A stretch of DNA of 64,000 nt from Bacteroidota bacterium (GCA_947448725.1 CANFOM010000012.1:6622-70621), one strand, 5' to 3'; positions 6,044-28,244 are shown, counted from the first letter of the stretch. Translations and numbers: made by a program. Notes: generated by a model from the sequence alone, not told the origin.

Positions 6044-8458
6044 TTACTCTATATATTTAACCACGCGGGCTAGCTTTCCATTGGCATTGGTGCCCTCTAA
6101 TACAATTTGTAATTTTTTACTTATATCATTATTGTAAAATTCAATTCTAATCCTTGGATTGCGTTTATTAGTTAACACATAAGGATTCCAATATAAGGTG
6201 GTTCTATTATCTTCTTCAAAATTTTCAGACGGCTTTTCGTAATCAGGATTAAAAAATTCTTTAAAAACAGAATAACCTCCTAAAGCAGCGTATTCCATTC
6301 CTACACTTTTGATATTTTTCCCTTTATTGTTATTGCCGCGTTTGGTATATATTGCAATGGCCCCTCCACTTCCACCACCAGCCGAACCAAAAAATGGAGG
6401 TCGAATGGCTTTGATGTAAGCAATATCAGCAATAGAAATATTTTGCACCGATTCTATAGGGGTATTAAATTCATTTACAAAGAAATCAGTTTTAGAACCT
6501 CTCCAGGTGGCAGAAGCTTGTGAACCATAAGCCATAATATTCAAACCTGGCACTTTGGATTGCAAATAGGTCAATACATTCATGGAGCCAAGCGCACTTG
6601 GATCGTTGGTTAAATCAAAGGAAGTTCCATCTCCCCCTGTAAAAAAACCAGTAGCATATTTTTCATCCAGTAACTGAATAGGCGATTTCGTTTTTGACTT
6701 TACCACTACTTCTGTTAAAGTGATAGAGGCTAATAATTTTTTTTGTCTTTCTTGTTCCAACAAAATAAAATTTAATTTAGCCCTAGCCATACTATCACTC
6801 CAATTTCGAACAAAACTACCTGCATCTATTGGTGATTTTTTAAATTCTTGTTTCAATAACCCATTTTCAAAATGCACTACGGCAATATTGTTCAATTTTG
6901 ATTTACTATTAACCCCATAATAGATTCTTGAAGTATCATAATAGAAAACAGACTTGTCTTCGAAACTTCCATCGCTTAATATGGGTATAAATAGCATTTT
7001 ATTACTACTGTCTCTGCCATTGATAATGATATTTAAAAGAAGGTCATCTGAGAATTTTATGTTTGCGTTGGCATACACTTTCCCTGAAACTTTCATAAAA
7101 TCAGTTTCTTTAGGATAAGTGGGCACTGGCAAAATACCTGCTTTAACTTTATCCCAATCAAATTTTCGCCATCCGTTGGTAAGCATTACTAAATCTAAAT
7201 GCGCCGCTACGCTATCTGCATCACTCGAAAAATAATAAGCAGGATGGTATACTTTACCGCGAATATCATTACTCAAAAGAAAATCAGAATAGATGGTTTG
7301 TTGTTCGGGCAACACAACTGAAGCGTCTGTAATGGATATAGACATATTGGATTCTGTGGTATCCTTCACCATTATTTCAAGTACATTTTTGCCTCTTTTA
7401 GCTGTATTGGCTACTTGCACGGATAACATCGCATTATACTCATGAAGGCGATTATTAATCAACACAATTCTTTCGGCTAAAGGAATCCAATCATTTGTAA
7501 ATAAAGAAAACTGTACCACACCGGTAGGTAATTCTTCAATGGGTAATCCAGCTTTCTGCAAAAGGCGTTCCTCCCCTTTAAATTCAACATTATATAGTAA
7601 GTGTTGATTTTGATGTACCAATAATCTCAAGTGCTTAAAATTTTGGGGGACTTCCGCAGTTCGTTCTACTTGAACATAAGCTTTCTCTACATCCATACTA
7701 AGCTTCATAATAACACCCTCTTTATTGGCAGCCATTATAGGAGTAATACCTTTTTGCGCATTTTCGTCTGTCCAATTAAGTTGATACTTTTCTCCAGCCA
7801 CTGGTTTTAATTTAAAAGTGCCCATGCCATCATGTGCTATTTTTAAAGTATCCAACACTTTGTTTTTATCATTAACTAAAAATCCTTTTATAAATACAGG
7901 TATCCCAAAGCCATTGGTAGCTTTAAAAGCTACTTTGCTATTTAATCCATTAACCAAAACGCCGCCTTCTGGAAAAACATCTACCCTTGTTTTGGAGGTA
8001 GTGATTGTTTTTGTTTTAGCTATCGAACCATCATTAACAGGAATATTTTTTTCGTAAATAAATATACTATCGTCATTCAACATCCAACGTGTAAAGGCTT
8101 TTAAACGAATAAAGTCGCCTTTGTAATTGGGCGGCACTTCAAAACTTCCCTTGGCAGATGATTTTAATAAAGGGGCAACTGTTTGCTTGATATAATTCCC
8201 ATTAGCATCATACCAATTAACATAAACGTTCTTGCTTAAACTAGTCCATTCTAATCCTGATAAAACATAAAGTTTATAAAAAATGGTTTCTCCTTTATTG
8301 TACATGGTCCTATCGAAATGAATATGCATTTTTTCGAGTGGCAATTGCTGTTCATATAAGTTTATAACAGAATCATATATTTGTGCCTGAGTCTTTTCTG
8401 CATAAAAAGTCATCAATAACAATACAAAACAATTCAAAAATATTTTTTTCATCTTCAC
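6044..8458 (-). CDS. Secreted 804-aa protein with a C-terminal TonB-receptor plug-like domain but no beta-barrel; function unknown
   Basis: Signal peptide (..FYAEKTQAQ). The C-terminal third (LTEVVVKSK..VLTYLQSKVPGLNI..ADIAYIKAIRPPFFGSAGGGSGGAIAIYTKRG) looks like a plug domain. The N-terminal two thirds are unrecognised (possibly MG2/Ig-like). Confidence 0.5.
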   Translation of the reverse strand: MKMKKIFLNCFVLLLMTFYAEKTQAQIYDSVINLYEQQLPLEKMHIHFDRTMYNKGETIFYKLYVLSGLEWTSLSKNVYVNWYDANGNYIKQTVAPLLKSSAKGSFEVPPNYKGDFIRLKAFTRWMLNDDSIFIYEKNIPVNDGSIAKTKTITTSKTRVDVFPEGGVLVNGLNSKVAFKATNGFGIPVFIKGFLVNDKNKVLDTLKIAHDGMGTFKLKPVAGEKYQLNWTDENAQKGITPIMAANKEGVIMKLSMDVEKAYVQVERTAEVPQNFKHLRLLVHQNQHLLYNVEFKGEERLLQKAGLPIEELPTGVVQFSLFTNDWIPLAERIVLINNRLHEYNAMLSVQVANTAKRGKNVLEIMVKDTTESNMSISITDASVVLPEQQTIYSDFLLSNDIRGKVYHPAYYFSSDADSVAAHLDLVMLTNGWRKFDWDKVKAGILPVPTYPKETDFMKVSGKVYANANIKFSDDLLLNIIINGRDSSNKMLFIPILSDGSFEDKSVFYYDTSRIYYGVNSKSKLNNIAVVHFENGLLKQEFKKSPIDAGSFVRNWSDSMARAKLNFILLEQERQKKLLASITLTEVVVKSKTKSPIQLLDEKYATGFFTGGDGTSFDLTNDPSALGSMNVLTYLQSKVPGLNIMAYGSQASATWRGSKTDFFVNEFNTPIESVQNISIADIAYIKAIRPPFFGSAGGGSGGAIAIYTKRGNNNKGKNIKSVGMEYAALGGYSVFKEFFNPDYEKPSENFEEDNRTTLYWNPYVLTNKRNPRIRIEFYNNDISKKLQIVLEGTNANGKLARVVKYIE

Positions 8459-8794
8459 TTAGTTTTTCGATCGCTTATAATTATCGACTTGCCAAAGTTA
8501 GGTATTTGTATAGGATAGCGCCTTAAATAAACAAGCAGATAGGTTGGATAAGAATTATCAAGATGAAATTAAAATATTCCACAATAAAAACCACACAAAA
8601 ACAAAGGATAAAATAAAATAGAACCGATAAAGTAAGGCCTTCCGTTAAATGTTCTAAGAAATGATTATGCGATGGAAACTAAGCATTTTCAGTGCAATAG
8701 AAATAGAATTATAATTTATATTAGATTGATTTACAAGCATTTATAATAAAGTGCAAAATAACTCCCCCTTTATAAGCTATACAATCGGATTGGC

Positions 8795-9475
8795 TTAGGC
8801 AGCTATAACAACTGCTTTTAATTCATATATATCATCAAAAATATAATTGGGATTGGCGGCTAATAATTGAATCTTAGTATGTGCCCCTGTAGTAACTGCA
8901 ATATTGTACACACAACCCGCATTCCTTCCTTCTTCTATATCTATGGTAGAATCTCCCACTTTTATAACTGATGCTGCATCTTGAATATTCATTTTCTCCA
9001 TGGCATATAATATCATGTCTGGCATGGGTCGGTTGTTATTAACATCCGATGAGGTAACTAGTAAATCAAAATTAACACCTTCAACCCAATTTAGTTTTTT
9101 AACTAGAGAAGTAGCAGTGGCTTTATTATAGCCTGTATTTAAAACCACTTTAATACCTAAGTCTCTTAATTCCTTAAATAGTCTTTCTGTATTTTGGGTA
9201 GGAACCACTGTCAAATTTTCATAAGCTGTATCAAGAAGAACCAAAAAATCCTTAAACACTTCTTGAATAGTATCCTCATTAAGAAACATATTAGTTCCCA
9301 CTAAGGTGTCTTTAATTGCTTGCAGCTTTTCCTTTCCTGCCCCCCACTTTAAAACTTCTTCAAAAGTAACGTTAGGACATTTTTTTTGTATTGCCTTATG
9401 TAAAGTATGATACACCACATTGCCTTCATCTACAGTAGTTCCAGCCATGTCAAAAACAACCATTGCTATTTTCAT
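8795..9475 (-). CDS. Phosphonatase-like HAD hydrolase (PhnX-like, TIGR03351-type)
   Basis: 226-aa ORF. HAD motif I is FDMAGTT, with Ala at nucleophile+2 as in phosphonoacetaldehyde hydrolase (FDWAGTT) rather than the DxDGT of phosphatases. Motif IV is GDSTIDIEEGRNAG. Last gene of the phosphonate cassette. Confidence 0.75.
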   Translation of the reverse strand: MKIAMVVFDMAGTTVDEGNVVYHTLHKAIQKKCPNVTFEEVLKWGAGKEKLQAIKDTLVGTNMFLNEDTIQEVFKDFLVLLDTAYENLTVVPTQNTERLFKELRDLGIKVVLNTGYNKATATSLVKKLNWVEGVNFDLLVTSSDVNNNRPMPDMILYAMEKMNIQDAASVIKVGDSTIDIEEGRNAGCVYNIAVTTGAHTKIQLLAANPNYIFDDIYELKAVVIAA

Positions 9476-9479
9476 AAAA

Positions 9480-10028
9480 TTATTTTAAAGATGATTCGAT
9501 TGCATTAGTAAATGATTCAATTGGAGGACTTACTAGATTCGGATCTTTTGCCAAGTCATCCCATCTTCTTAATGCTACCGCATCTTTGTAAAATTCATTT
9601 TTCTCAAATGCTTCTACTTCAATCTGATCCATTACACCCCCTTGAAATTCCAAACTAATTTTTGAAGGTGCCGATAAAGCTTCATGATAACCTGGCTCCG
9701 TCGCACATAAATATCTTTTGGCCTGGACATGTAATTTAACAGGTTCCACTGCACCCAATTTAAAGTGTTGAGTCAAATACTTCTCCCCTAGCAATTCATG
9801 CATATCATCAATACCATTATCACTTGCATCATCGGGTAAATCATGTAATAAATGTCCTATATCATGTAACAAAGCAGCAGTAACTAATTCATCAGTCGCA
9901 TAATGTATTCTTGCTAATTCGGCACATTGTAAAGCATGTTCTAATTGAGTAACTTCCTCGCCACCATACATGGAAGAACCATTATTTTCAAAGAGATCTA
10001 ATATTTGTTGTGTAATTGGATGTAACAT
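9480..10028 (-). CDS. phnZ: Phosphonate-degradation HD-domain diiron oxygenase (PhnZ type)
   Basis: 182-aa ORF. Ligand pattern H..HD..H..H..D in YGGEEVTQLEHALQCA, AALLHDIGH, MHELLGEKYL, LHVQAKRYL and RRWDD. This closely matches my memory of PhnZ/TIGR03276. Confidence 0.8.
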   Translation of the reverse strand: MLHPITQQILDLFENNGSSMYGGEEVTQLEHALQCAELARIHYATDELVTAALLHDIGHLLHDLPDDASDNGIDDMHELLGEKYLTQHFKLGAVEPVKLHVQAKRYLCATEPGYHEALSAPSKISLEFQGGVMDQIEVEAFEKNEFYKDAVALRRWDDLAKDPNLVSPPIESFTNAIESSLK

Positions 10029-10037
10029 AAAATTATA

Positions 10038-11165
10038 TTAAAGGTTATTAATCATTTCTTCTGCAAAACCAAATGACATGGTCATGCCATGACCCCCAAT
10101 ACCATTTAAGATATATACTCCTTTTTCAGGATTCAAAAACAAATCAGGAGCGCCATTTGTCATAATTGGATAAATCCCATTCCATGATTGTGTCATTTCC
10201 CATTCATCGATATGAATTAATTTTTTAAGATAATCTAATATCATATTATTTATCTCTATTTTATCAAAGGGCTCAAAATCTAATGCATATTCATGCGAAT
10301 CTCCAACAGTCAATTCACCAACATTATTTTGAGAAACCATAACATGTATCCCATATTTTAAATAAGTTGGAATTTCAGACTCAATTTTCATTCTTAATTT
10401 AGTAAGCGAAGAAGAAGCAGTAAAACTTTTATAATGCAGCAATGACAAGCCACCACAAATAGAAGCTCCAATTCTGTAATCTGGATCTTTATGCTTAAAA
10501 CGCATCATTTGTAGTTTTGTTTTTATTATTGGCTGTGCTTTAAAAATTTCTGGATATAAGGTTTCAAAATCAGCGCCAGAGCATACACAAATAATATCTG
10601 CTTCAAATTTTAAATTATTTGAAAATGCTACATTGCTTTTAACACTAGTGATGGCTGTACCCCAAATAAATTTAACCTTATACATTTCAGTTAAATAAGT
10701 TGGTAATTTTTTGATGCCTTCTCTTGGATCTATAATAGTCTCCTCTTCACTTCTAAGCGCCCCCAATAAACCTTCCCCATTAATCCCTTGATAATTATTC
10801 AATACCGCTTTAGCATCCATAATCGAAACTGGTCTGTTTTTGGCTTTGAAAAAGCTGCCAATCTCTTCCACAACCGTCATTTCTTCTTGAGAATAAGCTA
10901 AATGCAAACTTCCACAAGCATTGTATGGAATATGCGCTGCATCTAAATATTCTAGCCAAATTTCTTTGGTTCTAACTGCCCTATCATATAATTTACCATC
11001 TGGCTGCCCTACTGGCCAAAGCATTCCAAAATTTCTTACGCTTGCACCTAATGAAAATTGAGATTTTTCTATGACTGTAACTTCATAGCCTTTTTGGGCT
11101 AAGGCTCTTGCTGTGGCAAGTCCCAAAATACCTGCGCCAACTACTATGGCTTTTTGACTATTCAT
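10038..11165 (-). CDS. DAO-family FAD-dependent amine oxidoreductase of the phosphonate-cluster-associated clade (TIGR03364-like)
   Basis: I place the start at MNSQKAIVVGAGILGLATARALAQKGYEVTVIEK (GxGxxG directly after the Met). This ATG overlaps the upstream stop as ATGAATAG. The ORF-track start at 11210 adds 15 non-conserved residues inside the upstream gene. Confidence 0.75.
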   Translation of the reverse strand: MNSQKAIVVGAGILGLATARALAQKGYEVTVIEKSQFSLGASVRNFGMLWPVGQPDGKLYDRAVRTKEIWLEYLDAAHIPYNACGSLHLAYSQEEMTVVEEIGSFFKAKNRPVSIMDAKAVLNNYQGINGEGLLGALRSEEETIIDPREGIKKLPTYLTEMYKVKFIWGTAITSVKSNVAFSNNLKFEADIICVCSGADFETLYPEIFKAQPIIKTKLQMMRFKHKDPDYRIGASICGGLSLLHYKSFTASSSLTKLRMKIESEIPTYLKYGIHVMVSQNNVGELTVGDSHEYALDFEPFDKIEINNMILDYLKKLIHIDEWEMTQSWNGIYPIMTNGAPDLFLNPEKGVYILNGIGGHGMTMSFGFAEEMINNL

Positions 11166-12423
11166 ATGTATATTTTTTATACTTTTTATTAAAATATAAG
11201 AGTGTCGCAATACTAACTAAAGTGCCAATAATTGACAAAATTAATACACCATTACTATAAAAATTTGTCCAACTTATTGAAATTCCCATTGAGCTTTTTA
11301 AAATAATAACAAAAACGCTTGCCAAATACCCAAAGGAATCTACTAAGTACATGAAATAACCTACATTTCCTTTTATTTTAAAGGTTGCAATCATGCGATC
11401 AAATAGTATACAATTAAATGGTATATACCCCATATACAATCCAAGCCCCACTAAAACTATCCATAAATAGCCAGATATAATGTGTTGTAAAAAGAGTAAA
11501 GTGCTTATTCCGCAAATTACAAAACCTGCCAAAATGATTATTTGCGCTATTTGAAAAGCTAATTTATTATTATTGATATAAATCATACTTGCAATAAGAA
11601 TAAGTACACAAAATGCAATAGGAATTTCAGTGGCTGTAAAAATGGCTGCATTTTTACCATAGCCTAATTCTAACCAAATATCTGCAGCGAAATTGTCTCT
11701 TATATCTCTAAAAAGTGTAAGTAATATATAAATAAAAATAAATGAAATCAACCCAAAAGAAAATAGCTTAAAAAAATGTTTCCTTTCATTGCTATTCATG
11801 GGTACTCTCAAGGATTTCTCTTCCGTTTCAAAAGCAGTAGGATGTGGTATTTTTTCTAGTAAATATATCAATATAATTACGGGGACTAAAAATATAAGCC
11901 CCGTATAAAAAGGGATCCACTTTTCTTGCAGCACATATGTAAGTTGAAGCCATTTTCCAACAGTTTTAACAAACCCAGAAGAAACTATAAAACTTACAGC
12001 CATTGTCGCCCCAATAAAATCGGATGTTTTACGGCCTTCTACAAAGGAGAAAATCAAGCCCCATAATACTCCCAAGGGTAGGCCATTGAAAAATAAGAAT
12101 ACTATATTCCAAGGAGATTTAAATAATGGGAATAATAACAATGGAATAAAAGACAAAATAATTAACATCAAAATAGACCAGCCTCTTCCGACTTTGTTCA
12201 ATTCTGAGATAAATTTAATGCCATAAAATTTACTTACAGTATACCCCAATACCTGTGCAATAACCAAAATATTTTTATAATCAACCCCAGCTATTTTTGG
12301 TTCATCCATGTACAATCCAATGGTAAATGGTTTTCTAAAAGCGTACACACAAGCATAAGTTAAAAAACATATTACGGCTATATAGATAGAAATTAATATA
12401 CTATTTATCTTCTCTTTTTTCAA
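11158..12423 (-). CDS. Polytopic inner-membrane permease (MFS-like; I recall this family as DUF5690)
   Basis: 421-aa ORF that is hydrophobic throughout, with roughly 10-12 TM segments by eye. It shows translational coupling (8-nt overlap) to the FAD oxidase gene. Confidence 0.6.
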   Translation of the reverse strand: MKKEKINSILISIYIAVICFLTYACVYAFRKPFTIGLYMDEPKIAGVDYKNILVIAQVLGYTVSKFYGIKFISELNKVGRGWSILMLIILSFIPLLLFPLFKSPWNIVFLFFNGLPLGVLWGLIFSFVEGRKTSDFIGATMAVSFIVSSGFVKTVGKWLQLTYVLQEKWIPFYTGLIFLVPVIILIYLLEKIPHPTAFETEEKSLRVPMNSNERKHFFKLFSFGLISFIFIYILLTLFRDIRDNFAADIWLELGYGKNAAIFTATEIPIAFCVLILIASMIYINNNKLAFQIAQIIILAGFVICGISTLLFLQHIISGYLWIVLVGLGLYMGYIPFNCILFDRMIATFKIKGNVGYFMYLVDSFGYLASVFVIILKSSMGISISWTNFYSNGVLILSIIGTLVSIATLLYFNKKYKKYTYE

Positions 12424-12446
12424 AATATTTGCATTGTATAATAATC

Positions 12447-12480
12447 AAGAAAGAGTCCCAAATACTTGGAACTCTTTCTT
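12447..12480 (-). terminator. Hairpin in the SusD-permease gap (possible attenuator or partial terminator)
   Basis: AAGAAAGAGT (12447-12456) pairs perfectly with ACTCTTTCTT (12471-12480) across a 14-nt loop. On the coding (-) strand it is followed by UGAUUAUUAUAC, which is only moderately U-rich. Confidence 0.4.
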
Positions 12481-12528
12481 TTTCGATTACTCGTTATAAA
12501 CAATATAAACCCCCATTTATATTTACTT

Positions 12529-14109
12529 CTATTGAATGATCCACATTTTAGCATTAATATCATCTTTCCCACTATACTGAGAAGTAAGTGCAGAAGTTAA
12601 ATTTGCTTTATTAGTAGACAATTCTGATGATGGATATTGATAACGCAAAGGAATGATATTGCTATTTCCAGTACCAGGGCCCGCATCAAATGCAGGAACG
12701 CCTGTTCTTCTCCATTGATAATAACCTTCTAAACCAGAATTACGAGCTAGTGCTAAATAACGTTGGGTTAAAATTTGATTTAAACCTGAAGCTGTATTGT
12801 CCCCAGCATATTTAACTGCATCTTGATTGAAATAATCTGCAAAACTAAAATTAACCGTATAGTTAACATAATCCCCAGGTGCAGTTCCTTTCAAGAAAGA
12901 AACTGTATTATTGCCATCAACAATACCATAAAAAGCAAACATCGCTTTTATTCCTTTTTGGTACCAATCATTTGCCGATCCACTGATCCAACCACGATTA
13001 ATGGCTTCTGCAATATTCAAACACATCTCAGGATAGCCTACTAAAAAGGTATTTTCTCCAGTAAAGCCATCATAATAACGCTTACGACCAATTGGAGCTA
13101 TTTTAAGAGCCACAATTTTTCCACCTAATACAGACATGTCTTCGCCAGCACCACCGCCCACAAAAGATTTAAAAGACGTGTCAGCAAAACCTAAACCACG
13201 AGCAGGATCAGCTACTTTCATGGCTCTTAAATCTTTCAAACTACTCAAAGTATTTAACCAAGTTGATGCAACACACAAACGCAATGCATCATTACCATAG
13301 TTATTTTTATTATTTGGATAATAATTGTAAGATGAGTTGTAAACAAATTCCCAGTTATCAGACAATTCAGACATGATAGGATACTTAGCAGGATTTCCAA
13401 AAACGTCTGAAAATTTTTGCTTGATGTTTAAATCTGCATCATTCGATTTTTTACTCAAATTAATTAGTAGTCTTAATTTGTAGGTATTAACTACTTTTTG
13501 CCATTTCTTTAAAGCAGTCAAAGGATCAACACCCCCAGATATTTTTTCTTGGAAATAAAAATCTCCTAATAAAGCTGTATTTGAACTTGCTATCAAGGAA
13601 GCTAAATCAGTATTAGCATCTTCTAATAATTTGAAAGCTTGAATAAATACCTGTTTTTGACTATCATATTTTGGAGTAGGATTAGCCAATCCTTTCAAGG
13701 CTTCTGACATTGGTATATCCCCTACTTTTAAACTCATACCTACATAAATATAGGCTTTGAAAAATTTAGCTAATGCTCCATAAGGAGTAACTCCTGTAGA
13801 TGCTTTTGCTGCTTCTTTTTCCATTGCTGCTATATTTTCCAAAGTGTTGTAATCTAAATTCGCACTACCACTCCAATATTCATTCGTACCATAATAGGTA
13901 TAGGTAGATAGGGTATATTGCCCAAATTTATCTTCATCACCTGCCGGGAAAACCATTATGTTATTTTCGATTTGTCTCAACAACAAATAGGCTGGTACGG
14001 AAGTAGGCTGATTTGGATTTTGAGTATACTTCTCAAATGTTTTTGTACAACTACTTGCAGCTATTGCAATGACTGCAAAAAATAGCGCTATTAATTTATT
14101 TGTTTTCAT
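12529..14109 (-). CDS. SusD/RagB-family nutrient-binding outer-membrane lipoprotein
   Basis: 526-aa ORF. Lipoprotein signal (AIAASSCTK). Located 33 nt downstream of a SusC-type gene. TPR-like helical composition typical of SusD homologues. Confidence 0.8.
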   Translation of the reverse strand: MKTNKLIALFFAVIAIAASSCTKTFEKYTQNPNQPTSVPAYLLLRQIENNIMVFPAGDEDKFGQYTLSTYTYYGTNEYWSGSANLDYNTLENIAAMEKEAAKASTGVTPYGALAKFFKAYIYVGMSLKVGDIPMSEALKGLANPTPKYDSQKQVFIQAFKLLEDANTDLASLIASSNTALLGDFYFQEKISGGVDPLTALKKWQKVVNTYKLRLLINLSKKSNDADLNIKQKFSDVFGNPAKYPIMSELSDNWEFVYNSSYNYYPNNKNNYGNDALRLCVASTWLNTLSSLKDLRAMKVADPARGLGFADTSFKSFVGGGAGEDMSVLGGKIVALKIAPIGRKRYYDGFTGENTFLVGYPEMCLNIAEAINRGWISGSANDWYQKGIKAMFAFYGIVDGNNTVSFLKGTAPGDYVNYTVNFSFADYFNQDAVKYAGDNTASGLNQILTQRYLALARNSGLEGYYQWRRTGVPAFDAGPGTGNSNIIPLRYQYPSSELSTNKANLTSALTSQYSGKDDINAKMWIIQ

Positions 14110-14142
14110 ATTTTTTTATTTTTTTAAACAATTATTTTTATT

Positions 14143-17100
14143 TTAGAAAACAATGTTTAAGTTAATACCATAACTACGTGTAGTAGGCGTTTGTAAATTA
14201 TATTCCTTACTATTACCACTATTGTAATCGCGACCAGAATATTGGTCAATATCCATATCCTTAAAACGATCTGGGAAGAAATACAATAAGTTACGTCCAA
14301 CCAATGAAATATCAACTTTAGAAACAAATGATTTCTTACCAATCAATGACTGAGGCAATGAATACGTAATAACTATCTCACGTAATTTTCCATAAGTTTT
14401 CGAAACTGAAGTATGTTCAAAGTCATTAAAGAAACTACTTACATAATCTTGAATATAATTCACAACCCCTGTATTTTTAGCAAATTGTAAAGAACTTAAA
14501 TTAGTAATCACACCAGTTACGGGGTCATATTTAATTGCTTGGCCATTTGAAATTTGTACCCCCTCGCCTACATAAGTTCCTTTAAATCCTTTATCATTGT
14601 AATGCGCTGCTTCGTATGCTCTAGCTGCACCCACTGCACCTTCTGCAGTAAAAATATTAGAGCCGCCTTCAATACCTTTTCTCATTACACGGTCTTGAAC
14701 TACACCGCCCACTTTACCATCAAATTGGAAAGAGAAAGTAAAAGCTTTATAATTGAATTTATTGTAAATAGACCAGCTCCAATCTGCATCTGCATGACCT
14801 ACATATTGTGCTTTTGGCAAATACACTGGATAACCAGCGCTGTTATTAATTACTTGCCCATCAGATGTTTTCGCAGTAACACCAGAATAAATTTTATCTA
14901 CTCTATCACCTTGGTGGAATTGGTAACTTTCAAAATTGCTTGGCAATTCTTTATAGGTTTCTGTAAAAGTTGACCAGTTAAGCATCACATCCCAGTTTAA
15001 CCCTTTTGCAGATCTTAATGGAGAGCCTGTTAAAGACAATTCAGCCCCTTTTACTTGTGTTTTAATAGCATTTGTAGTAAATGCAGTTATACCTGTAGTT
15101 TGTGAAATTGGGAAATCTCTAATTCCAGGGCCATTGATATTATTAAAGAACGTTGCTGCTAAACCTAATCTATTTTTCAAAAATTTGACATCAAATCCAT
15201 ACTCTGTACTTGTTACTTGAGAAGATTTAATATTAGAGTCAATAGCATTCAAAGGAGCACTTGCGCCAGTTGAACCATTGTATACTGTGTTAATAGAATA
15301 CGCTGGATTAGATAAAGAATATGATGGTCCACCGTAAACACTTACATATGGGTTTCCGTATCCAACAGGATAACCCGCTGGGCCAATATATTGTTGAGTA
15401 TTAGGTGATTTTGCAGATGCATAACTTGCTCTCACTTTTAAGAAGCTAATAATTTCAGGCATTTTTACATAATCTGAAATAACTGATGCTCCAGAAATGG
15501 ATGGATAGAAATAGGTATTATTATTAATTAACAAAGTAGAACTCTTATCTACTCTTCCAGTAGTTGTTAAAGTGAAATACTTACCAAATTCAACTCCTGC
15601 TGAATAATAAGAACTCAATACCAACATGTCAGAATGGAAATTGTATGCTTTAACAGCATTCAATGAATTAGCAAATGAATACAATCCTGGTACGTTTAAG
15701 TAATCAGTAGTAGTAAAACTAGACTGATAAGTAAAGTTACGGGCATTCACACCACCTATCGCATCAAACACAATACCATTGGTAAACTTATGATTGTATT
15801 TTGCTAAAGCTTCTACGTTATTATCAAACAAAGAACGAACGTCTTCTCTATAATCACCGCGGTTTAATTCACGACCATAAGGGTGAGCAGAATAAGGCAT
15901 TTGCTCAGTTCTTAAAACGTTATTGGCACTTATATTGGTTCTTAAGATAGCTTCAAAATCATTGTTAGGCTTATAAGACAAAGAAATATTTCCTGTAACA
16001 TCATTTTTATAATGACCACGCAACCACTCATAACTCATAAAATAAGGATTGTGGTAACGTTGGTATTCAGCAAATTTAGACTGAACCCCTTCTTTGCCTG
16101 GTTGCCAGTAGCTTTTCATATCATCTACATTCCAATCTGCACCAGTCCAAATGGTCATAGAGTAGATAACACTATTAGGGCCATAAGAAACATCTGGCGT
16201 ATTAGGAGAAAATTGGCGATTGTAATTTAAACTACCGTCAATTTTAAATTTGCTAGATAGATTATAACTCGCATTCAAATTAAAATTAATCGTATTTAAT
16301 TTTGTATTTGGAATGATACCTTGTTGAGTGGTATTGCTTAAAGACATACGTACATTAGAACGATCGGTAACAGAAGAAAAACTTAAGTTATTAGTAGACA
16401 ATACTCCTGCTTGAATAAAACGCTCCAAATTATTTTTACCCACTGGTAAATAAGGAGTTGCTTTACGAACACCCGTAACTGGATCAATTGGACTATTCCA
16501 CTGAGGAATTAATTGGCCGTTTAAAGCTGGTCCCCAAACATCATAGTCCCCATCATTGATTCCACCACCTTTACCATCGCCAAATGCATATTGAGAATAG
16601 TCACCACCGCCATATAATGCTTGTGATTTAGGTAAAGCAATAAATCCTTTATCTACTTGTGTACTAGAATTAAATTCAATAGTATACCCTTTATCGTTTT
16701 TCTTTGCTCTTTTGGTAGTAATTAAAATAGCCCCATTTTGTGCACGGCTTCCATAAATTGCTGTTGCAGCCAACCCTTTTAGAACGGTATAAGACTCAAT
16801 ATCATCTGGACTTAGATTCCAAGTATCAGAAGTTACTGGGATACCATCAACCACATATAAAGAAATATTGTACCCACGTAAAGAAACGTTAGGCGCTGCT
16901 AACATTTCACGATTAATAGCAACATCTAAACCAGCGACTTTACCTACTAATCCATTGATTGGATTGGGTTCTCTCGCTTTCACTAAATCGGCACCCTTTA
17001 CTTCTTGCACAGAGTAACCTAATTTTTTTACATCTTTTTTAACCCCCAAACCAGTTACCACCACATCTTCTAATTTATCCACAGCAGGAATTAATTTTAC

Positions 17101-17388
17101 TAGCAATTCAGTGCCATTAATAACGACCTGTGAGGTTTGAAAGCCAACATAGGAAACCGAAATAACGACTCCTTTAGTTGCACTAATGGTAAAACTACCG
17201 TTTGAAGTCGATAAGGTGCTTTTACTGTTTTTGACAGATATAGTTGCACCTTCAATTGCATTTGATGTAGTAGCATCAATTACTTTACCACTTACATTCA
17301 AATTTTGCGCATGTACCTGAAATGCAAAGCAGATAAGTGCTAGCGGCATCATCAGGTATTTTAATAATTTGATTTTTTCTTGAATCAT
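14143..17388 (-). CDS. SusC/RagA-family TonB-linked outer-membrane transporter
   Basis: 1081-aa ORF. Signal peptide, N-terminal carboxypeptidase-regulatory-like domain (VSGKVIDATTSNAIEGATISV), plug (GLDVAINREM..RGYNSL..VVDGIP), and the terminal beta-barrel motif ending in ..NLNIVF. Confidence 0.9.
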   Translation of the reverse strand: MIQEKIKLLKYLMMPLALICFAFQVHAQNLNVSGKVIDATTSNAIEGATISVKNSKSTLSTSNGSFTISATKGVVISVSYVGFQTSQVVINGTELLVKLIPAVDKLEDVVVTGLGVKKDVKKLGYSVQEVKGADLVKAREPNPINGLVGKVAGLDVAINREMLAAPNVSLRGYNISLYVVDGIPVTSDTWNLSPDDIESYTVLKGLAATAIYGSRAQNGAILITTKRAKKNDKGYTIEFNSSTQVDKGFIALPKSQALYGGGDYSQYAFGDGKGGGINDGDYDVWGPALNGQLIPQWNSPIDPVTGVRKATPYLPVGKNNLERFIQAGVLSTNNLSFSSVTDRSNVRMSLSNTTQQGIIPNTKLNTINFNLNASYNLSSKFKIDGSLNYNRQFSPNTPDVSYGPNSVIYSMTIWTGADWNVDDMKSYWQPGKEGVQSKFAEYQRYHNPYFMSYEWLRGHYKNDVTGNISLSYKPNNDFEAILRTNISANNVLRTEQMPYSAHPYGRELNRGDYREDVRSLFDNNVEALAKYNHKFTNGIVFDAIGGVNARNFTYQSSFTTTDYLNVPGLYSFANSLNAVKAYNFHSDMLVLSSYYSAGVEFGKYFTLTTTGRVDKSSTLLINNNTYFYPSISGASVISDYVKMPEIISFLKVRASYASAKSPNTQQYIGPAGYPVGYGNPYVSVYGGPSYSLSNPAYSINTVYNGSTGASAPLNAIDSNIKSSQVTSTEYGFDVKFLKNRLGLAATFFNNINGPGIRDFPISQTTGITAFTTNAIKTQVKGAELSLTGSPLRSAKGLNWDVMLNWSTFTETYKELPSNFESYQFHQGDRVDKIYSGVTAKTSDGQVINNSAGYPVYLPKAQYVGHADADWSWSIYNKFNYKAFTFSFQFDGKVGGVVQDRVMRKGIEGGSNIFTAEGAVGAARAYEAAHYNDKGFKGTYVGEGVQISNGQAIKYDPVTGVITNLSSLQFAKNTGVVNYIQDYVSSFFNDFEHTSVSKTYGKLREIVITYSLPQSLIGKKSFVSKVDISLVGRNLLYFFPDRFKDMDIDQYSGRDYNSGNSKEYNLQTPTTRSYGINLNIVF

Positions 17389-17446
17389 AAATATATTTTT
17401 TCAGTTTTGAAGGCACAAGATAAAAGCATATATTTTTTAAAAATTA

Positions 17447-17458
17447 AACACTAGTGTT
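17447..17458. promoter_or_regulatory. Perfect 12-bp palindrome AACACTAGTGTT in the divergent SusC / phosphoesterase control region
   Basis: Read directly from the sequence. It lies 59 nt upstream of the SusC start codon. Function unproven. Confidence 0.3.
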
Positions 17459-17622
17459 AACAAATTATTATGTTCGCTTTAACATTTAGTTTTATAACAT
17501 TGCTTAATATTCTGGTAACAATTGGTTTACGATTTGGTAACAAATAGGCAAATGCTTAATAATATGTTCACATTGAAAAATCAATTGAATATTTAATTTG
17601 TGGGACAATTCAATTTAATTCA

Positions 17623-20328
17623 ATGAAGATCTTATTTACATTATTCCAATTAATTTTAGTATCCAATTATTTAGTTGCTCAAAAAAGTTATAATTACTTA
17701 TCTGTTCCAGGTGACCAAGAGTATACTACCATCGATAAAAATAATCACACTGTATTGCCAAGTGGGAGATATATTAAGCCAGCAGGCTCTACTATTCAAA
17801 TTACACATGACCCTTTTGGAATGGCCGTTTCGCCAGATGGAACCAAAACAGTTACCTTGCATGATGGTGTAATTACAATTATAAACAATGATAATTTAAA
17901 AGCCGTTCGAGTTCCTAGTTATGATAAAAAAATTGACACTATTTTAAAAAAAGGGTCTTTTTTGGGAATCACTTTTGCTGGAACCAATAATGATTTAGTG
18001 TATTTAAGTGCTGGGGATGCGGGTGCAGTAATTGTTTATGATATTAAACAATATAAAAAAATAGATTCTATTTCATTAAATGGAACTATTAATGGAGAAG
18101 CATTTGATGATAGCTTTACTTCCGATATCATTTACAATGAAAAAGAAAATGAATTATTGGTTTTAGATAGAGGTAATTTTAGATTGGTAAGAATTGATCT
18201 TACAACAAAAAAAATAAAAGCATCTATTAAAACTGGACGTCAACCTTTTAATTTGGCCTTAAGTCCAAACAAGGAATTCGTTTTGGTGGCCAATGTAGGA
18301 ATGTACGATTATCCTGTGCTACCAGACCTCACCAAAGAAAATTATGATACACTATTATTGCCTTGGCACCCCTATGGCAACAATACCAAAGAATCTATTC
18401 AAGGAACAACTTACAATGGCAGATTTGTCCCTGGGGTAGGTGACCCTTTATCTCCAGATGCCATGAGTGTATTTAGCATTGACTTAAATACAAACAAAGT
18501 TATTGATAAGTTTAAAACGGGTTATCAAATTGGAGAGATGATCGAAGGCGCTGAAGTAGTGGGAGGAGCAAGTCCAAATTCGATTGCTATTGGAAATAAT
18601 TTTGCTTATGTATCCAATGCCACCAATGACAATATTTCAATCATTGACTATAAAAATCATAAAATAATAGGCAGCATTCCTATCAAATTAAATGACGCTA
18701 TAGATCATTATAGAGGATACCTCCCATTTGGCATTGCCATGGCGAAGGATGAAAAAACATTGTATGTGGCATTATTAGGCTTTAACGCAGTGGCGGTAAT
18801 TGATCTTGAAAAAAGAAAAACCATTGGATTTATTCCAAGTGGTTGGGGTACATCAAAAATAAAATTAAGTAGCGATGAAAAAGATATGTACGTTATCTCT
18901 TGTAGAGGTTATGGCGCAGGGCCTAATGGAGGAATAGGATTTAAAAAACCTGATCAAGGTACCTATATTGGAGACATTCAATTAGGTACTTTCCAAAAAA
19001 TTCAAGTACCTACATTGGAGGAATTAAAAGTCTATACAACTACAACTTTAAACAATACCTATAAAACAATAACCAAATTGGATGATATAAAAAATCCATT
19101 ACCTATCAAAGCAGGCATTCGTAAAAGCCCTATAAAATATATTGTTTACATCACTAAAGAAAATAGAACTTATGACGAAGTGTTAGGTCAATTAAAAACA
19201 GGCAGAGGTGATTCTAGTATAGCAAGGTTTGGAAATCATGTAAGAATGGGCTTTCAAAGTAAAAGTGCCGTAGGATATGATATTACTCCCAATCATGCAA
19301 AATTGGCACAAGAATTTGCTTTTTCAGATAATTTTTATTGCGACGGCGATGCCTCCATACACGGACACCACTGGATGATGGGTGTGATACCGAATGAATG
19401 GGTAGAGACTAATTCAAGTGTAAGTAAATCTGCAAAAATATTTTCAAAAGCTTCAGGTAGAAGATTCCCTGGCACTACAGGCAGTATCGATCCAGAAGAT
19501 TATGCAGAAAGAGGTGGTTTATGGGAGGCCCTTGAAAGAAAAAAAGTACCCTTTTATAATTTTGGAGAAGCCAATGAAACGGCACATAATAGAGAAGAAT
19601 GGAATGATACTGCTACAGGTGGCGCACATGCTGTAATGGTTCCTATGCAAAAAGCATTATGGAAAAATACGAGTCATAATTATGCAGGTTTTAATTGTAA
19701 TATTCCAGATCAATTTAGAATGGAGCAATTTGAATCCGAGTTTACAAAACTTTGGTTAAGCAAGCATAAGGAAATACCTCATCTAATTACCATGCAAGTG
19801 CCCAATGACCATACGGCAGATCCAAGACCTAAATTCGGATATCCCTACCATGAATCCTATGTAGCAGACAATGATTTAGCGGTAGGTAGGATTTTGCATT
19901 TCTTATCTAGAACACCTTACTGGAAAAATATGTTGGTAATTATTACCGAAGATGACCCTCAAGGTGGAGTTGATCATATAGATGCGCATAGAAGTATCTT
20001 AATGCTGGCAGGCCCTTATGTAAAGAGAAATTACACGTCTAAGACTCATGCAAATTTTGGTTCAATACTTAAAGTGATTTATAATATTTTAGATGTGCCC
20101 TATGTAAATCAGTATGATGCCACAGCAAGTTTATTGGATGATTTTTTTACAGACAAACCAAATTATAAGCCCTATAGCTTAGTTTTTCCTTCCAAAGAAA
20201 TATTCAATACAACCAATGCAATGAAACGTTATAATCGAGACATAGATTGGCGAAAAGTTGAAAAAGGGCCTGATATGGATGACGAGGATGAAATTAGAAA
20301 AGCACATTATAAAAAAGAAAAGAAATAA
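17623..20328 (+). CDS. Secreted beta-propeller (YVTN/YncE-like) fused to a PF04185-type phosphoesterase (phospholipase C / AcpA acid phosphatase family)
   Basis: 901-aa ORF with a signal peptide. The N-terminal half has lactonase/YVTN-like repeats (P.G.A.SPDG... / P..IA......YV.N). The C-terminal half has IVYITKENRTYDEVLG (compare ENRSFDHYFG) and ITEDDPQGGVDHIDAHRS. Confidence 0.75.
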   Translation: MKILFTLFQLILVSNYLVAQKSYNYLSVPGDQEYTTIDKNNHTVLPSGRYIKPAGSTIQITHDPFGMAVSPDGTKTVTLHDGVITIINNDNLKAVRVPSYDKKIDTILKKGSFLGITFAGTNNDLVYLSAGDAGAVIVYDIKQYKKIDSISLNGTINGEAFDDSFTSDIIYNEKENELLVLDRGNFRLVRIDLTTKKIKASIKTGRQPFNLALSPNKEFVLVANVGMYDYPVLPDLTKENYDTLLLPWHPYGNNTKESIQGTTYNGRFVPGVGDPLSPDAMSVFSIDLNTNKVIDKFKTGYQIGEMIEGAEVVGGASPNSIAIGNNFAYVSNATNDNISIIDYKNHKIIGSIPIKLNDAIDHYRGYLPFGIAMAKDEKTLYVALLGFNAVAVIDLEKRKTIGFIPSGWGTSKIKLSSDEKDMYVISCRGYGAGPNGGIGFKKPDQGTYIGDIQLGTFQKIQVPTLEELKVYTTTTLNNTYKTITKLDDIKNPLPIKAGIRKSPIKYIVYITKENRTYDEVLGQLKTGRGDSSIARFGNHVRMGFQSKSAVGYDITPNHAKLAQEFAFSDNFYCDGDASIHGHHWMMGVIPNEWVETNSSVSKSAKIFSKASGRRFPGTTGSIDPEDYAERGGLWEALERKKVPFYNFGEANETAHNREEWNDTATGGAHAVMVPMQKALWKNTSHNYAGFNCNIPDQFRMEQFESEFTKLWLSKHKEIPHLITMQVPNDHTADPRPKFGYPYHESYVADNDLAVGRILHFLSRTPYWKNMLVIITEDDPQGGVDHIDAHRSILMLAGPYVKRNYTSKTHANFGSILKVIYNILDVPYVNQYDATASLLDDFFTDKPNYKPYSLVFPSKEIFNTTNAMKRYNRDIDWRKVEKGPDMDDEDEIRKAHYKKEKK

Positions 20329-20329
20329 A

Positions 20330-20743
20330 CTACAAGCCCTCAAAAGCTTTCATCATAAAAATGGCCGTTTCGCCAAATTCTTTTCCTTTGTTCATTCTGT
20401 CAATGGCGGCTCTTTCGTAAGCCAATTCTTCGGTTTGCGTGGTAAGTATCCCAAATATAATTGGTGTGGTATGTAATGCAGATAATTGGCTTATACCATT
20501 GGTCACATATTGACAAACATATTCATAATGATCCGTATCGCCTTTGATGATAGCGCCAATTACAATGATAGATTTATACTTTCCTGTACTTATTAATTTA
20601 TTGGCATACACAACGGTTTCCACCGCGCCAGGACATTCAAATAAAGTAAATGGACTCTTTACTTGTTTCAAATAATCAATACAGCCTTTTTCTAATAAAT
20701 CGGTGATTTCTGGATTGAATTGAGCTTTTATAATTGCTATCAT
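20330..20743 (-). CDS. ribH: 6,7-dimethyl-8-ribityllumazine synthase (short form, 137 aa)
   Basis: Motifs CPGAVETVVYANKL, GAIIKGDTDHYEYV and IFGILTT match the RibH core. It lacks the usual N-terminal ~15-20 residues. Confidence 0.8.
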   Translation of the reverse strand: MIAIIKAQFNPEITDLLEKGCIDYLKQVKSPFTLFECPGAVETVVYANKLISTGKYKSIIVIGAIIKGDTDHYEYVCQYVTNGISQLSALHTTPIIFGILTTQTEELAYERAAIDRMNKGKEFGETAIFMMKAFEGL

Positions 20744-20754
20744 GATTTATTATT

Positions 20755-21954
20755 TTAATTGAATTTTAAAGTGTGGTGTCCGAATTGTATTTTATCAGAA
20801 AGGTATTGTTGATTTTGTTCGGTGGAGGTAACAGCCACTTGTAAAACATCAAAATTAAAATTTGCTTTTTTGAGCGCCTTTACTTTTTCAGGGTTATTGC
20901 TCACTAAACTAAAATTGTTTATGCCAGAAGCCTTTAACATCCAAATAGCATCAAAATAATTTCTGTTATCCTTAGGCAAGCCTAATTTTTCATTGGCTTC
21001 ATAGGTATTATGCCCTTGTTCTTGTAATGAGTAGGCAGCAATTTTATTGCCAATACCAATACCTCTTCCTTCATGTCCTCTTAAATAAACGATATAGCCA
21101 TGCCCATTTTTTGCAATCAAGGCCAAGGAGTTATGCAATTGTTGTTGACAATCGCATCTTAAACTTCCAAAAACATCTCCTGTTAAACATTCGCTGTGAA
21201 TTCTAACAATAGGTTTGTTTTGACTGGTGCGCATTGCAATTAATACCTGTTCTTTGCCTGTTAAATAATTTTCGAAAACTTCAATATCAAAATTGCCAAA
21301 TGAAGTGGGCAATGAGGATTTTGAAACAAAAAGCAAATGATTTTCTGTTTGATTTCGATAATCAATTATTTGCTGTATAGTAATTACTTTAAGTTCTAAT
21401 TTTTCAGCAAATTTAAAAAGGCCCTCTCTCCTCATCATATTACCTTCTTCATCCATTACTTCACAAATTATGGCAGCCGGTTCATGCCCAGTTAACTTAC
21501 ACAAATCCACTGCAGCTTCGGTATGGCCTTGTCTGGCCAATACTCCATTTACCTTTGATACCACTGGAAATAAATGTCCCGGTTTTATAAAATCATTCGG
21601 ATGGCTATTGGGATTTGCAATTTGAGCAGCGCTAATAGCGCGTTCTTTTGCTGAGATACCTGTGGTAATACCAAATGCAGCACTAGCATCAATGGAATCA
21701 TAGAAGGCAGTATGAAAAGGATCCAATTGATTCGATGGTACTGGAGATAAATTTAATCGATTGGCAATTTTAGCGTCAATAGCAATACATACCAATCCTT
21801 TAGCATTCGTTGCACAAAGATTTATTTTTTCTTGGGTGGCCGCATCGGCAGGAAAAACGATATCCCCTTCGTTTTCTCTAGACTCATCATCCACTACTAA
21901 AATTGGATTCCCATTTTTAAATGCCAATAAAGCATCCTCAATTGTATTAAACAT
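20755..21954 (-). CDS. ribBA: Bifunctional 3,4-dihydroxy-2-butanone-4-phosphate synthase / GTP cyclohydrolase II
   Basis: 399-aa ORF. The RibB part has DDESRENEGD and HTEAAVDL. The RibA part has RIHSECLTGDVFGSLRCDCQQQL and LRGHEGRGIGIGNK. Confidence 0.9.
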   Translation of the reverse strand: MFNTIEDALLAFKNGNPILVVDDESRENEGDIVFPADAATQEKINLCATNAKGLVCIAIDAKIANRLNLSPVPSNQLDPFHTAFYDSIDASAAFGITTGISAKERAISAAQIANPNSHPNDFIKPGHLFPVVSKVNGVLARQGHTEAAVDLCKLTGHEPAAIICEVMDEEGNMMRREGLFKFAEKLELKVITIQQIIDYRNQTENHLLFVSKSSLPTSFGNFDIEVFENYLTGKEQVLIAMRTSQNKPIVRIHSECLTGDVFGSLRCDCQQQLHNSLALIAKNGHGYIVYLRGHEGRGIGIGNKIAAYSLQEQGHNTYEANEKLGLPKDNRNYFDAIWMLKASGINNFSLVSNNPEKVKALKKANFNFDVLQVAVTSTEQNQQYLSDKIQFGHHTLKFN

Positions 21955-21955
21955 T

Positions 21956-22549: not shown

Positions 22550-22591
22550 TTGCGTATTTCTTGGTAAATTTGAGCTGCAAAGATAATCTAA

Positions 22592-27372: not shown

Positions 27373-27377
27373 ACTTT

Positions 27378-28238: not shown

Positions 28239-28244
28239 GAAATA

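Follow-up and report, generated by a model that had tools for sequence, protein, structure and literature searches.

Phosphonates account for a sizeable fraction of dissolved organic phosphorus, and in nature they are mostly bound in lipids and glycans. To our knowledge, the bacterial uptake systems known so far (PhnCDE, AepXVW, AepP) take only free phosphonates. Bacteroidota often lack PstS and the ABC phosphonate transporters. In Flavobacterium, SusC/SusD-like pairs that are induced at low inorganic phosphate (Pi), termed PusCD, co-localise in some of their forms with phnX, dao, metal-dependent hydrolases and permeases (PMC8115612; bioRxiv 10.1101/719427; Lidbury et al., ISME J 2020). PusCD1/2 import phosphoinositol (lipid) head groups, and other pusCD-like pairs are found next to aminophosphonate or glpQ-like genes (Connolly et al., bioRxiv 10.64898/2026.09.03.749221). 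We analyzed a locus of this kind, located at positions 8795 to 20328 of a 64,000-nucleotide stretch of DNA from a freshwater Bacteroidota bacterium (GCA_947448725.1, CANFOM010000012.1:6622-70621; hereafter, the window). It combines a SusC/SusD pair (SusCD), a cassette of genes predicted to mineralise aminophosphonates and a divergent phosphoesterase gene. We interpret it as a two-module phosphorus-scavenging locus of the PUS type from a Chitinophagaceae bacterium whose nearest relative is Sediminibacterium, a reading to which we assign a probability of about 0.6. As in the published definition of such systems (PMC8115612), a SusCD-like pair is here co-located with phosphorus-acquisition enzymes and transporters. 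A first-pass annotation of the window had presented a SusCD unit hard-wired to a C-P cleavage cassette as not characterised. Experimentally this is true, and our literature search found no functional study of a phosphonate-linked SusCD; the co-localisation itself had already been published (bioRxiv 10.1101/719427; PMC8115612; bioRxiv 10.64898/2026.09.03.749221).

Six genes run along the minus strand from position 17388 to position 8795, separated by gaps of 33, 105, -8, 9 and 4 nt in the open reading frame (ORF) map. The products are, in this order, a SusC/RagA-type TonB-dependent transporter (TBDT; 14143–17388, 1081 aa), a SusD-like surface lipoprotein (12529–14109, 526 aa), a DUF5690 inner-membrane permease (11158–12423, 421 aa from a TTG start), a PbfD-type FAD-dependent amine oxidase (10038–11165, 375 aa), a PhnZ-type HD-domain di-iron oxygenase (9480–10028, 182 aa) and a PhnX-like HAD hydrolase (8795–9475, 226 aa). 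The start of the oxidase gene overlaps the stop of the permease gene by 8 nt, ATGAATAG (read as ...TAT GAA TAG / ATG AAT AGT); the oxidase ORF is extendable to a TTG at 11210, and it is the ATG at 11165 that yields this overlap. On the plus strand, a 901-aa fusion of a YVTN/YncE-type beta-propeller to a PF04185 phosphoesterase domain (17623–20328) is divergently transcribed from a 234-bp control region (17389–17622). The coordinates, gaps, 8-nt overlap, divergent region and FDMAGTT motif of the HAD protein given in the first-pass annotation were all reproduced, and the protein families predicted there were borne out by searches with Pfam and NCBIfam hidden Markov models (HMMs) and their curated cut-offs. 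Dozens of species-level genomes contain these genes together, as do near-identical metagenome contigs, and therefore the arrangement is not due to chance. The nearest species-level genome is that of an uncultured Sediminibacterium (locus L001; permease identity 85%). Loci with 97–99% protein identity are present, with the same flanks, on several freshwater-type metagenome contigs; the flanks consist of riboflavin genes on one side and an 802–804-aa ORF of unknown function plus metY/metX-like genes on the other.

Conservation of the gene set was examined from both of its ends. For the cassette end, loci were collected from species-representative genomes with DUF5690 as the anchor, and the window proteins were searched in them by tblastn. 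Eighty loci were obtained, nearly all from Bacteroidota (Chitinophagaceae, Cytophagia, Flavobacteriia, Saprospiraceae) and a few from Gammaproteobacteria, the latter without SusCD. Fifty-six of them are well flanked, having 8 kb or more of upstream sequence and 4 kb or more of downstream sequence. The oxidase gene lies within 3.5 kb of the DUF5690 gene and on the same strand in 41 of these 56 loci; oxidase and HAD genes are both present in 40, and the HD gene as well in 32. Complete susC and susD genes are located within 10 kb in 30 of the 40 loci that contain oxidase and HAD, and 3 more are cut at a contig edge, so that SusCD and the cassette are co-conserved, as the first-pass interpretation requires. 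Two operon architectures can be distinguished. The order of the window (susC-susD-DUF5690-pbfD-HD-HAD) is found in L001 and L002 and, partly, in L018 and L074 of the genome set. The common type, found in 46 loci, reads susC-susD-[propeller enzyme and/or NPP-like phosphodiesterase or extra TBDT]-HD-HAD-DUF5690-pbfD; the eight-gene operon of L010 is an example. Identity of SusCD to the window proteins is uncoupled from that of the cassette: in L004, L007, L010, L015 and L036, SusCD is 71–80% identical and the permease 57–59%, and the reverse occurs in L001. This uncoupling points to a shuffling of modules. The commonest accessory gene, present in 26 of the 80 loci, encodes an alkaline-phosphatase-superfamily protein of 357–391 aa (L010, 7635–8708; L017, 15786–16961) that matches PF01663/PF01676 weakly and no NCBIfam model; this gene is missing from the window.

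For the SusCD end, we collected 30 metagenome loci whose SusD is 72–91% identical to that of the window (L084–L113). In 6 of them the gene following susD belongs to the DUF5690 cassette; in 4 others susD is followed by the propeller enzyme and then by DUF5690-pbfD, and in a further 3 the sequence breaks off behind the propeller gene. In 11 of the 26 informative loci (SusD 77–90% identical), susD is instead followed by a GDPD glycerophosphodiesterase gene and the cassette is missing; in 10 loci it is the phosphonate module that comes directly after susD. A GDPD gene stands upstream of susC in 2 loci, and both modules are present in L104 and L106. The propeller enzyme is divergent from susC in GDPD-type and cassette-type loci alike, and a purple-acid-phosphatase-like gene is added in some of the GDPD-type loci. 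As either a GDPD or a phosphonate module follows the same SusCD clade, what stays constant in that clade is the combination of propeller enzyme and SusCD, behind which at least two back ends, the phosphonate cassette among them, are interchangeable. This suggests that the ligand of SusCD is a phosph(on)odiester of the head-group type rather than something unique to phosphonates. The first-pass interpretation can be retained in part, and the hard-wiring of SusCD to the cassette is contradicted. In L097 and L106 the permease gene beside pbfD-HD-HAD is separated from susD by about 1.3 kb of extra sequence, and its product shares only 43% identity with the window DUF5690, the enzymes being 77–86% identical; this may represent a replacement of the permease.

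The SusC protein scores 400.5 bits with TIGR04056 (cut-off 368.25) and 50.5 with the TIGR04057 signature (cut-off 46.2), and its plug domain matches PF07715 with 45.5 bits. A signal peptide, a carboxypeptidase-regulatory-like domain (PF13715), the plug and the barrel can be recognised in it, and model score, signature and plug domain all place it among the SusC/RagA TonB-dependent transporters. Orthologues with 70–92% identity are encoded in L004, L007, L010, L015, L036 and L084–L111. SusD, encoded 33 nt downstream of susC, matches PF12771 (SusD-like_2, 164.7 bits) and PF12741 (99.4 bits), and its N-terminus contains a lipobox-like ...AIAASSC, as predicted for a SusD-like lipoprotein. Between susD and the permease gene, a 105-nt spacer (12424–12528, minus strand) can fold into two hairpins, the main stem at about 12448–12479. 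Its minimum free energy is -29.2 kcal/mol (z-score -5.46), and none of 200 shuffled sequences was equally stable. L001, L084, L091 and L111 retain both hairpins: the outer stem (AAGAAAGAG/CTCTTTCTT) is invariant in these four relatives, and compensatory changes fall in the inner stem. The hairpins may act as an intra-operon attenuator or as an mRNA stabiliser that sets the ratio of susCD to cassette expression. An Rfam search of positions 8400–20800 gave zero matches.

The permease matches PF18943 (DUF5690) over its full length with 496.9 bits, and some DUF5690 homologues also match PF07690. A search of PDB sequences with a DUF5690 profile matched no solved protein, the fold being derived from an AlphaFold2 (AF2) model and Foldseek. 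In that model (pLDDT 81, pTM 0.83) the two six-helix bundles of the major facilitator superfamily (MFS) are predicted, and Foldseek against the PDB returned MFS transporters at probability 1.0 and TM 0.6–0.7 (TMq at most 0.71), among them sialin, DgoT, G6PT/SLC37A4 and PiPT, which gives an assignment at the level of the superfamily. Taking into account the MFS fold and the tight linkage of the gene to pbfD, we propose that DUF5690 imports aminophosphonates or related head groups.

All three cytoplasmic enzymes fall into phosphonate-associated HMM families and keep catalytic residues, in agreement with the earlier assignment. The FAD oxidase is a member of TIGR03364 (387.8 bits, cut-off 285.1) with a PF01266 DAO domain (143.5 bits) and an N-terminal Rossmann motif, VVGAGILGLA; a PDB search with this protein gave nothing at E <= 1e-10. 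The HD protein passes TIGR03276 marginally (217.4 bits against a cut-off of 214.6) and is far below the cut-offs of the TmpB and PhnZ1 equivalog models. It aligns with PhnZ (4MLM, E 6e-29) and TmpB (6NPA, E 1.3e-30), conserving the H/HD/H/H/D iron ligands and, according to the alignment, the Tyr24/Glu27 pair with which PhnZ holds the amino group of its substrate (YGGE against YIGE). Score, ligands and substrate residues are thus those expected of a PhnZ-type di-iron oxygenase. The label PhnZ-type, adequate with respect to family and residues, also implies a PhnY* partner, and on this point it does not hold: no Fe(II)/2-oxoglutarate dioxygenase of the PhnY* type was found within 8795–20328 or among the accessory genes that recur in the 80 loci. 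One PhyH-family ORF about 13 kb away (32710–33543, minus strand, 277 aa) was considered for this role and discarded; in the PDB it is most similar to SnoK (E 7e-12), and no similarity to a phosphonate-specific NCBIfam model or structure was seen. That gene adjoins an arylsulfatase-like gene (471 aa), the two occupying 31288–33543 on the minus strand. The HAD protein also passes its model, TIGR03351 ("PhnX-like"), marginally (220.1 bits, cut-off 218.9), and "type-B" HAD orthologues from related loci, with 200–208 bits, are slightly below this cut-off. When aligned with Bacillus cereus PhnX (2IOF, E 3e-16), it keeps the Asp nucleophile (FDMAGTT against FDWAGTT, within VVFDMAGTTVD), GAGK is aligned to the Schiff-base Lys53, NNRP to Arg160, and the Asp186/Asp190 motif is kept as GDSTIDIEEGRNAG; a Lys takes the place of PhnX His56. 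Together with the score, the DxAGT motif, the cap-domain Lys and the Arg replacing the usual HAD Lys place the protein in the PhnX-like group. The residues retained support the prediction that both the HD and the HAD proteins are catalytically competent.

In the 901-aa protein, YVTN repeats (TIGR02276, 49 bits) and further propeller matches (TIGR03866, NF052280) define a propeller of about 470 residues. The C-terminal part matches TIGR03397 and, weakly and split across two stretches, PF04185 (30.5 bits, cut-off 23). A profile of this C-terminal domain, built from orthologues and from paralogues of 28–39% identity, matches Francisella AcpA (2D1G, E 1.3e-10) and several phospholipases C (PLC). 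Invariant metal-ligand motifs are aligned between the two (KENRTYD with QENNSFD of AcpA, EDDPQGGVDH with YDDSDGDYDH), so that the predicted metal-binding residues of the PF04185 family are present. An invariant Ser in D-x-S-x-x-G-H, which is not aligned to AcpA Ser175, is the candidate nucleophile. The protein had been described as secreted. It has an ordinary type I signal peptide, no lipobox Cys and no obvious type IX secretion system (T9SS) C-terminal domain, and for these reasons a periplasmic location is more likely. Its orthologues, mostly from Chitinophagaceae, are annotated as [quoted passage not shown]. Of the 80 genome loci, 15 contain or adjoin the gene of the propeller enzyme, as do most of the SusD-anchored loci. 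This gene has the direction of the operon and stands between susD and the cassette in L004, L007, L010, L024, L028 and L029, and also in L093, L096, L104 and L105. A shorter propeller/PF04185 paralogue (about 809 aa), which shares 28–33% identity with the window protein and matches PF04185 more strongly (54 bits), is encoded in L008 (12412–14841), L005, L009, L015, L017 and L050; in several common-type loci, L008 included, its gene is the last of the operon, after pbfD. The propeller/PF04185 enzyme is thereby supported as a true member of the locus.

The divergent control region contains TT(A/T/C)ACA-like hexamers in 11/22-bp phase, namely TTAACA-N16-TTAACA at 17457–17484 and GTAACA-N5-TTTACG-N5-GTAACA, in exact 11-bp phase, at 17515–17542. 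The latter is the sole three-hexamer array scoring at least 16 in the window, and block shuffles contained a mean of 0.36 such arrays per window. In related loci, a TTAACA-N16-(T/G/A)TAACA pair lies about 9–10 nt upstream of a TAnnTTTG box, which we take to be the Bacteroidota -7 promoter element. Of 37 susC upstream regions, 3 contain hexamer pairs with a score of 11.5 or higher out of 12 (about 0.04 expected), and CTTAACA is the top enriched 7-mer in these regions (16 observed, 2.1 expected). Within 1.86 Mb of loci, 28 of the 47 hexamer pairs are intergenic, about 13 of them upstream of SusC/TBDT genes and one in a region shared with a PlcP-like gene. A sigma-70 promoter scan was uninformative (80 sites, 61.6 expected), Bacteroidota using other promoter elements. 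The unit of the Bacillus subtilis PHO box, TT(A/T/C)ACA with an 11-bp periodicity, is the same motif (PMC11870197). Genes for PhoB/PhoR-like proteins, a PlcP-like metallophosphoesterase and an MJ1255-type glycosyltransferase adjoin the cassette in 7–9 loci, the best NCBIfam matches of the first two being PhoB and PhoR/PnpS, below the cut-offs; this set matches the lipid-remodelling genes of the phoBR operon of F. johnsoniae (PMC8115612). PhoB-like and PhoR-like genes within 8 kb of DUF5690 or cassette genes were recorded in L026, L030, L033, L034, L042, L050 and L052 (and L037, L070). The Pho-box-like repeats in the divergent region and the PhoB/PhoR-like neighbours in 7–9 related loci make a link to Pi starvation plausible; this suggestive regulatory evidence is consistent with the locus probably being under Pho two-component control via the TT(A/T/C)ACA-like boxes. 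Another regulator gene, of the XRE-HTH/cupin type, is found next to susC in a part of the related loci, which include L005, L006, L008 (951–1532), L013, L016, L024, L027, L030 and L034, and a conserved "aaaagtttaatatt" box lies directly downstream of this gene, upstream of susC. The regulator is absent from the window, where the best tblastn match in the 64 kb has E 0.04.

From these data we infer the following order of steps and substrates. The front end would consist of the SusC/SusD importer and of the divergent, signal-peptide-bearing propeller/PF04185 phosphoesterase that shares its control region; the back end would be the aminophosphonate mineralisation cassette co-transcribed with susCD. 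SusD would bind an organophosph(on)ate head-group conjugate, for instance a deacylated (glycero)phosphonolipid, and SusC would take it across the outer membrane. The PLC-type enzyme, in the periplasm, would cut the P-O ester on the glycerol/alcohol side, freeing compounds of the 2-aminoethylphosphonate (AEP) type, and the DUF5690 MFS permease would carry these into the cytoplasm. There, the PbfD-type oxidase would turn AEP or N-methyl-AEP into phosphonoacetaldehyde, and the PhnX-like HAD would hydrolyse phosphonoacetaldehyde to acetaldehyde and Pi. In parallel, the PhnZ-type oxygenase would convert naturally occurring 1-hydroxy-2-AEP to glycine and Pi; as it has no PhnY* partner, it most likely takes this substrate pre-formed. 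The envelope steps are modelled on PusCD1/2 and on ester chemistry, and the cytoplasmic steps are predicted from family membership and conserved residues. A C-P head group can be freed only if the ester is cut on its alcohol side, as PLC-type enzymes do, which is in keeping with the constant occurrence of a PF04185 enzyme bearing an ordinary signal peptide.

Several observations weigh against this reading. The exchange of GDPD and phosphonate modules behind one SusCD clade, with GDPD in 11 of the 26 informative loci, means that SusCD is possibly not phosphonate-specific. Minimal forms of the locus exist: L004 and L007 contain susCD-propeller-DUF5690-pbfD without HAD and HD, and L027 contains only susCD-DUF5690. 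Free AEP (125 Da) could enter through porins. The PF04185 domain is a putative enzyme whose nucleophile is only a candidate, and its AF2 model, obtained from an alignment of 28 sequences all at least 72% identical, has a pLDDT of 40 and is unusable. The HD and HAD proteins exceed their cut-offs by only 1–3 bits, and the HAD falls below the model of true phosphonatases, TIGR01422 (111.1 bits against a cut-off of 220), for which reason we call it PhnX-like and not PhnX. Since the locus encodes no hydroxylase of the PhnY* type, the substrate of the HD oxygenase must come from the environment. Finally, the XRE-HTH/cupin regulator stands directly upstream of susC in 21–22 of the 80 related loci, which hints at substrate induction and not at Pho control.

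The module exchange also bears on a different explanation, which we consider possible without favouring it: SusCD and the propeller enzyme would constitute a general import unit for lipid head groups or glycerophosphodiesters, like PusCD with glpQ and with no special affinity for phosphonates, and the cassette would be independent of it, sharing a Pi-starvation promoter and using AEP that arrives by any route. The 11 GDPD-followed loci without cassette (SusD 77–90% identical), the 2 loci with GDPD upstream, the joint presence of both modules in L104 and L106 and the uncoupled identities of SusCD and cassette are as expected from it, and the 2026 PusCD preprint names both glpQ-like and aminophosphonate neighbours of pusCD-like pairs (bioRxiv 10.64898/2026.09.03.749221). 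It accounts less well for the tightness of the operon, with gaps of -8 to 105 nt, and for the linkage of the cassette to SusCD of several lineages (25–80% identity) in Chitinophagia, Cytophagia and Flavobacteriia, which argues for a functional link; moreover, the most constant partner is the PF04185 enzyme, whose PLC-type cut is the sole ester hydrolysis that frees a C-P head group. That the locus is an ordinary glycan polysaccharide utilisation locus (PUL) lying beside unrelated phosphonate genes is improbable in the extreme. SusC/SusD pairs are mostly glycan importers, and GH30, GH31 and rhamnosidase-like genes are present elsewhere in the window; however, no carbohydrate-active enzyme (CAZyme) gene lies in or adjoins the operon, the nearest one, a GH30 gene, being at 24787–26226, past the riboflavin genes. 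The genes of the locus overlap or abut and their synteny recurs in dozens of species, data that already contradict such an explanation. The first-pass statement that this is not a glycan PUL is in accordance with the partners of SusCD, namely a permease, an FAD oxidase, an HD oxygenase, an HAD hydrolase and a divergent phosphoesterase.

What the cassette acts upon can be questioned separately. It appears unlikely, and more so than a general import unit, that its substrate is another aminophosphonate, as in the TIGRFAM proposal that the oxidase deaminates 1-hydroxy-2-AEP and the HAD hydrolyses 2-oxo-1-hydroxyethylphosphonate, or that it serves nitrogen acquisition under substrate induction. The assignment of the HAD to TIGR03351 (220 bits) and not to TIGR01422 (111 bits), the Lys in place of PhnX His56 and the XRE/cupin regulators flanking 21–22 related loci would agree with this, and Pi-insensitive AEP catabolism is known (PMC8316502). 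On the other hand, the characterised PbfD enzymes, which include a TIGR03364 member, yield phosphonoacetaldehyde from N-methyl-AEP and AEP (PMC10590968); the HAD retains the Schiff-base Lys and the nucleophile of PhnX, and the window locus has Pho-box-like repeats and no XRE/cupin regulator. Returning to the two-module phosphorus-scavenging locus that we prefer, a more far-reaching version of it can be put forward only tentatively. DUF5690 might be a previously unrecognised family of importers for aminophosphonates (or aminoethyl-phosph(on)ates), and the propeller/PF04185 fusion a periplasmic phosphono-ester hydrolase freeing AEP head groups from deacylated phosphonolipids or phosphonoglycans. 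With the SusCD clade, they might constitute the first TonB-dependent uptake route for conjugated phosphonates, the back end being swapped between GlpQ-type and C-P-cleaving enzymes according to the head groups available. If true, the coupling of TonB-dependent uptake by SusCD to C-P cleavage would explain the access of Bacteroidota to bound phosphonates, and functions would be given to two unstudied families, DUF5690 and the YncE-propeller/PF04185 fusions.

Other features of the window were noted around and within the locus. An 804-aa ORF (6044–8458, minus strand), whose N-terminus resembles a signal peptide, starts 336 nt downstream of the HAD gene. It matches no Pfam or NCBIfam family apart from an MG2 domain (E 7.5e-4), is kept only in the nearest relatives (L001, 69%; L081–L084) and was excluded from the locus. 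On the other side, the 901-aa gene borders with its 3′ end directly on a riboflavin biosynthesis cluster (20330–23704; minus strand, ribH-like, ribBA-like and ribE-like genes; plus strand, a ribD-like gene), and its stop is 1 nt apart from that of ribH; the same junction is present in L081–L083. Further along, positions 26269–38822 encode giant ThuA/DUF7133/cupredoxin proteins (968 and 694 aa), 3-keto-disaccharide hydrolase-like proteins, a GFO/IDH/MocA oxidoreductase and a xylose-isomerase-like TIM barrel, a cluster that looks like an oxidative sugar (3-keto-glycoside) pathway. In L089, GDPD is followed by a DUF7133/cytochrome c protein and ThuA. Within susC, a TTG-initiated antisense ORF of 139 aa, rich in Cys, Phe and Ile (14554–14973, plus strand), is most likely spurious.

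Loci of this kind have already been noted in the literature, have not been characterised experimentally and, as such, will not surprise specialists in phosphorus acquisition by Bacteroidota. As useful and testable additions we consider the exchange of GDPD and phosphonate modules behind one SusCD clade, the assignment of DUF5690 and the propeller/PLC fusion; the two operon architectures, the Pho-box-like repeats and the conserved hairpin between susD and the permease gene are further useful findings. When compared with enzymes described elsewhere, the cassette shows both familiar and distinct traits. PbfD1 of Acinetobacter baumannii is a TIGR03364 member, the PbfD enzymes being O2-dependent oxidases that convert N-methyl-AEP and AEP to phosphonoacetaldehyde, and PbfD2 with PhnX of Mariniblastus fucicola makes up a complete AEP pathway without PhnW (Zangelmi et al. 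2023, PMC10590968). The window locus likewise pairs a TIGR03364/PbfD-type oxidase with a phosphonatase-type HAD and has no PhnW transaminase; it differs in that its HAD belongs to the TIGR03351 clade and is not a canonical PhnX, in the addition of the HD oxygenase, DUF5690 and SusCD, and in that its activity is a prediction. With PhnY*/PhnZ (4MLM/4MLN) and TmpA/TmpB, the HD protein shares TIGR03276, the di-iron ligands and the Tyr/Glu residues, whereas the operon lacks the 2-oxoglutarate dioxygenase partner and identity to PhnZ and TmpB is low (E ~1e-29). R-HAEP has been described as a natural compound (PMC8154272, PMC12366243). In the "phosphonatase operons" PhnX-HpnW-PhnHD of Achromobacter, the same trio of a phosphonatase-type HAD, a TIGR03364 oxidoreductase and a TIGR03276 HD protein is encoded by adjoining genes, of which only the phosphonatase was studied biochemically and the rest in silico (PMC11203657); these operons are proteobacterial and, unlike the window locus, lack SusCD, DUF5690 and the propeller/PF04185 enzyme.

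The transport and envelope components can be compared in the same way. AEP transporters include AepXVW and AepSTU (ABC) and AepP (MFS, GlpT-like) (Murphy et al. 2021, PMC8316502). AepP and DUF5690 have in common the MFS fold, predicted for the latter, and a transporter gene embedded in an AEP catabolic cluster, and DUF5690 constitutes a separate Pfam family. Like members of the AcpA/PLC family (Francisella AcpA, 2D1G; plant NPC4, 8HAV), the C-terminal domain of the 901-aa protein matches the family profile and keeps the E-N and D-D...D-H metal motifs; it differs in its fusion to a YVTN/YncE-type propeller and in the weakness of the similarity. A low-Pi-induced propeller protein annotated as a "putative phosphatase", Fjoh_3414, is known from F. 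johnsoniae (PMC8115612). The closest counterparts remain the PUS loci of Flavobacterium. The PusD proteins of PusCD1/2 carry PF07980/PF14322, whereas the window SusD carries PF12771/PF12741, and PusCD was described in Flavobacterium, while the host of the window locus is a member of the Chitinophagaceae. In both cases a SusC/SusD-like pair is accompanied by phosphoesterases and inner-membrane permeases and by no CAZymes, and in both the partners of the pair are either phosphonate genes (phnX, dao) or glpQ-like genes.

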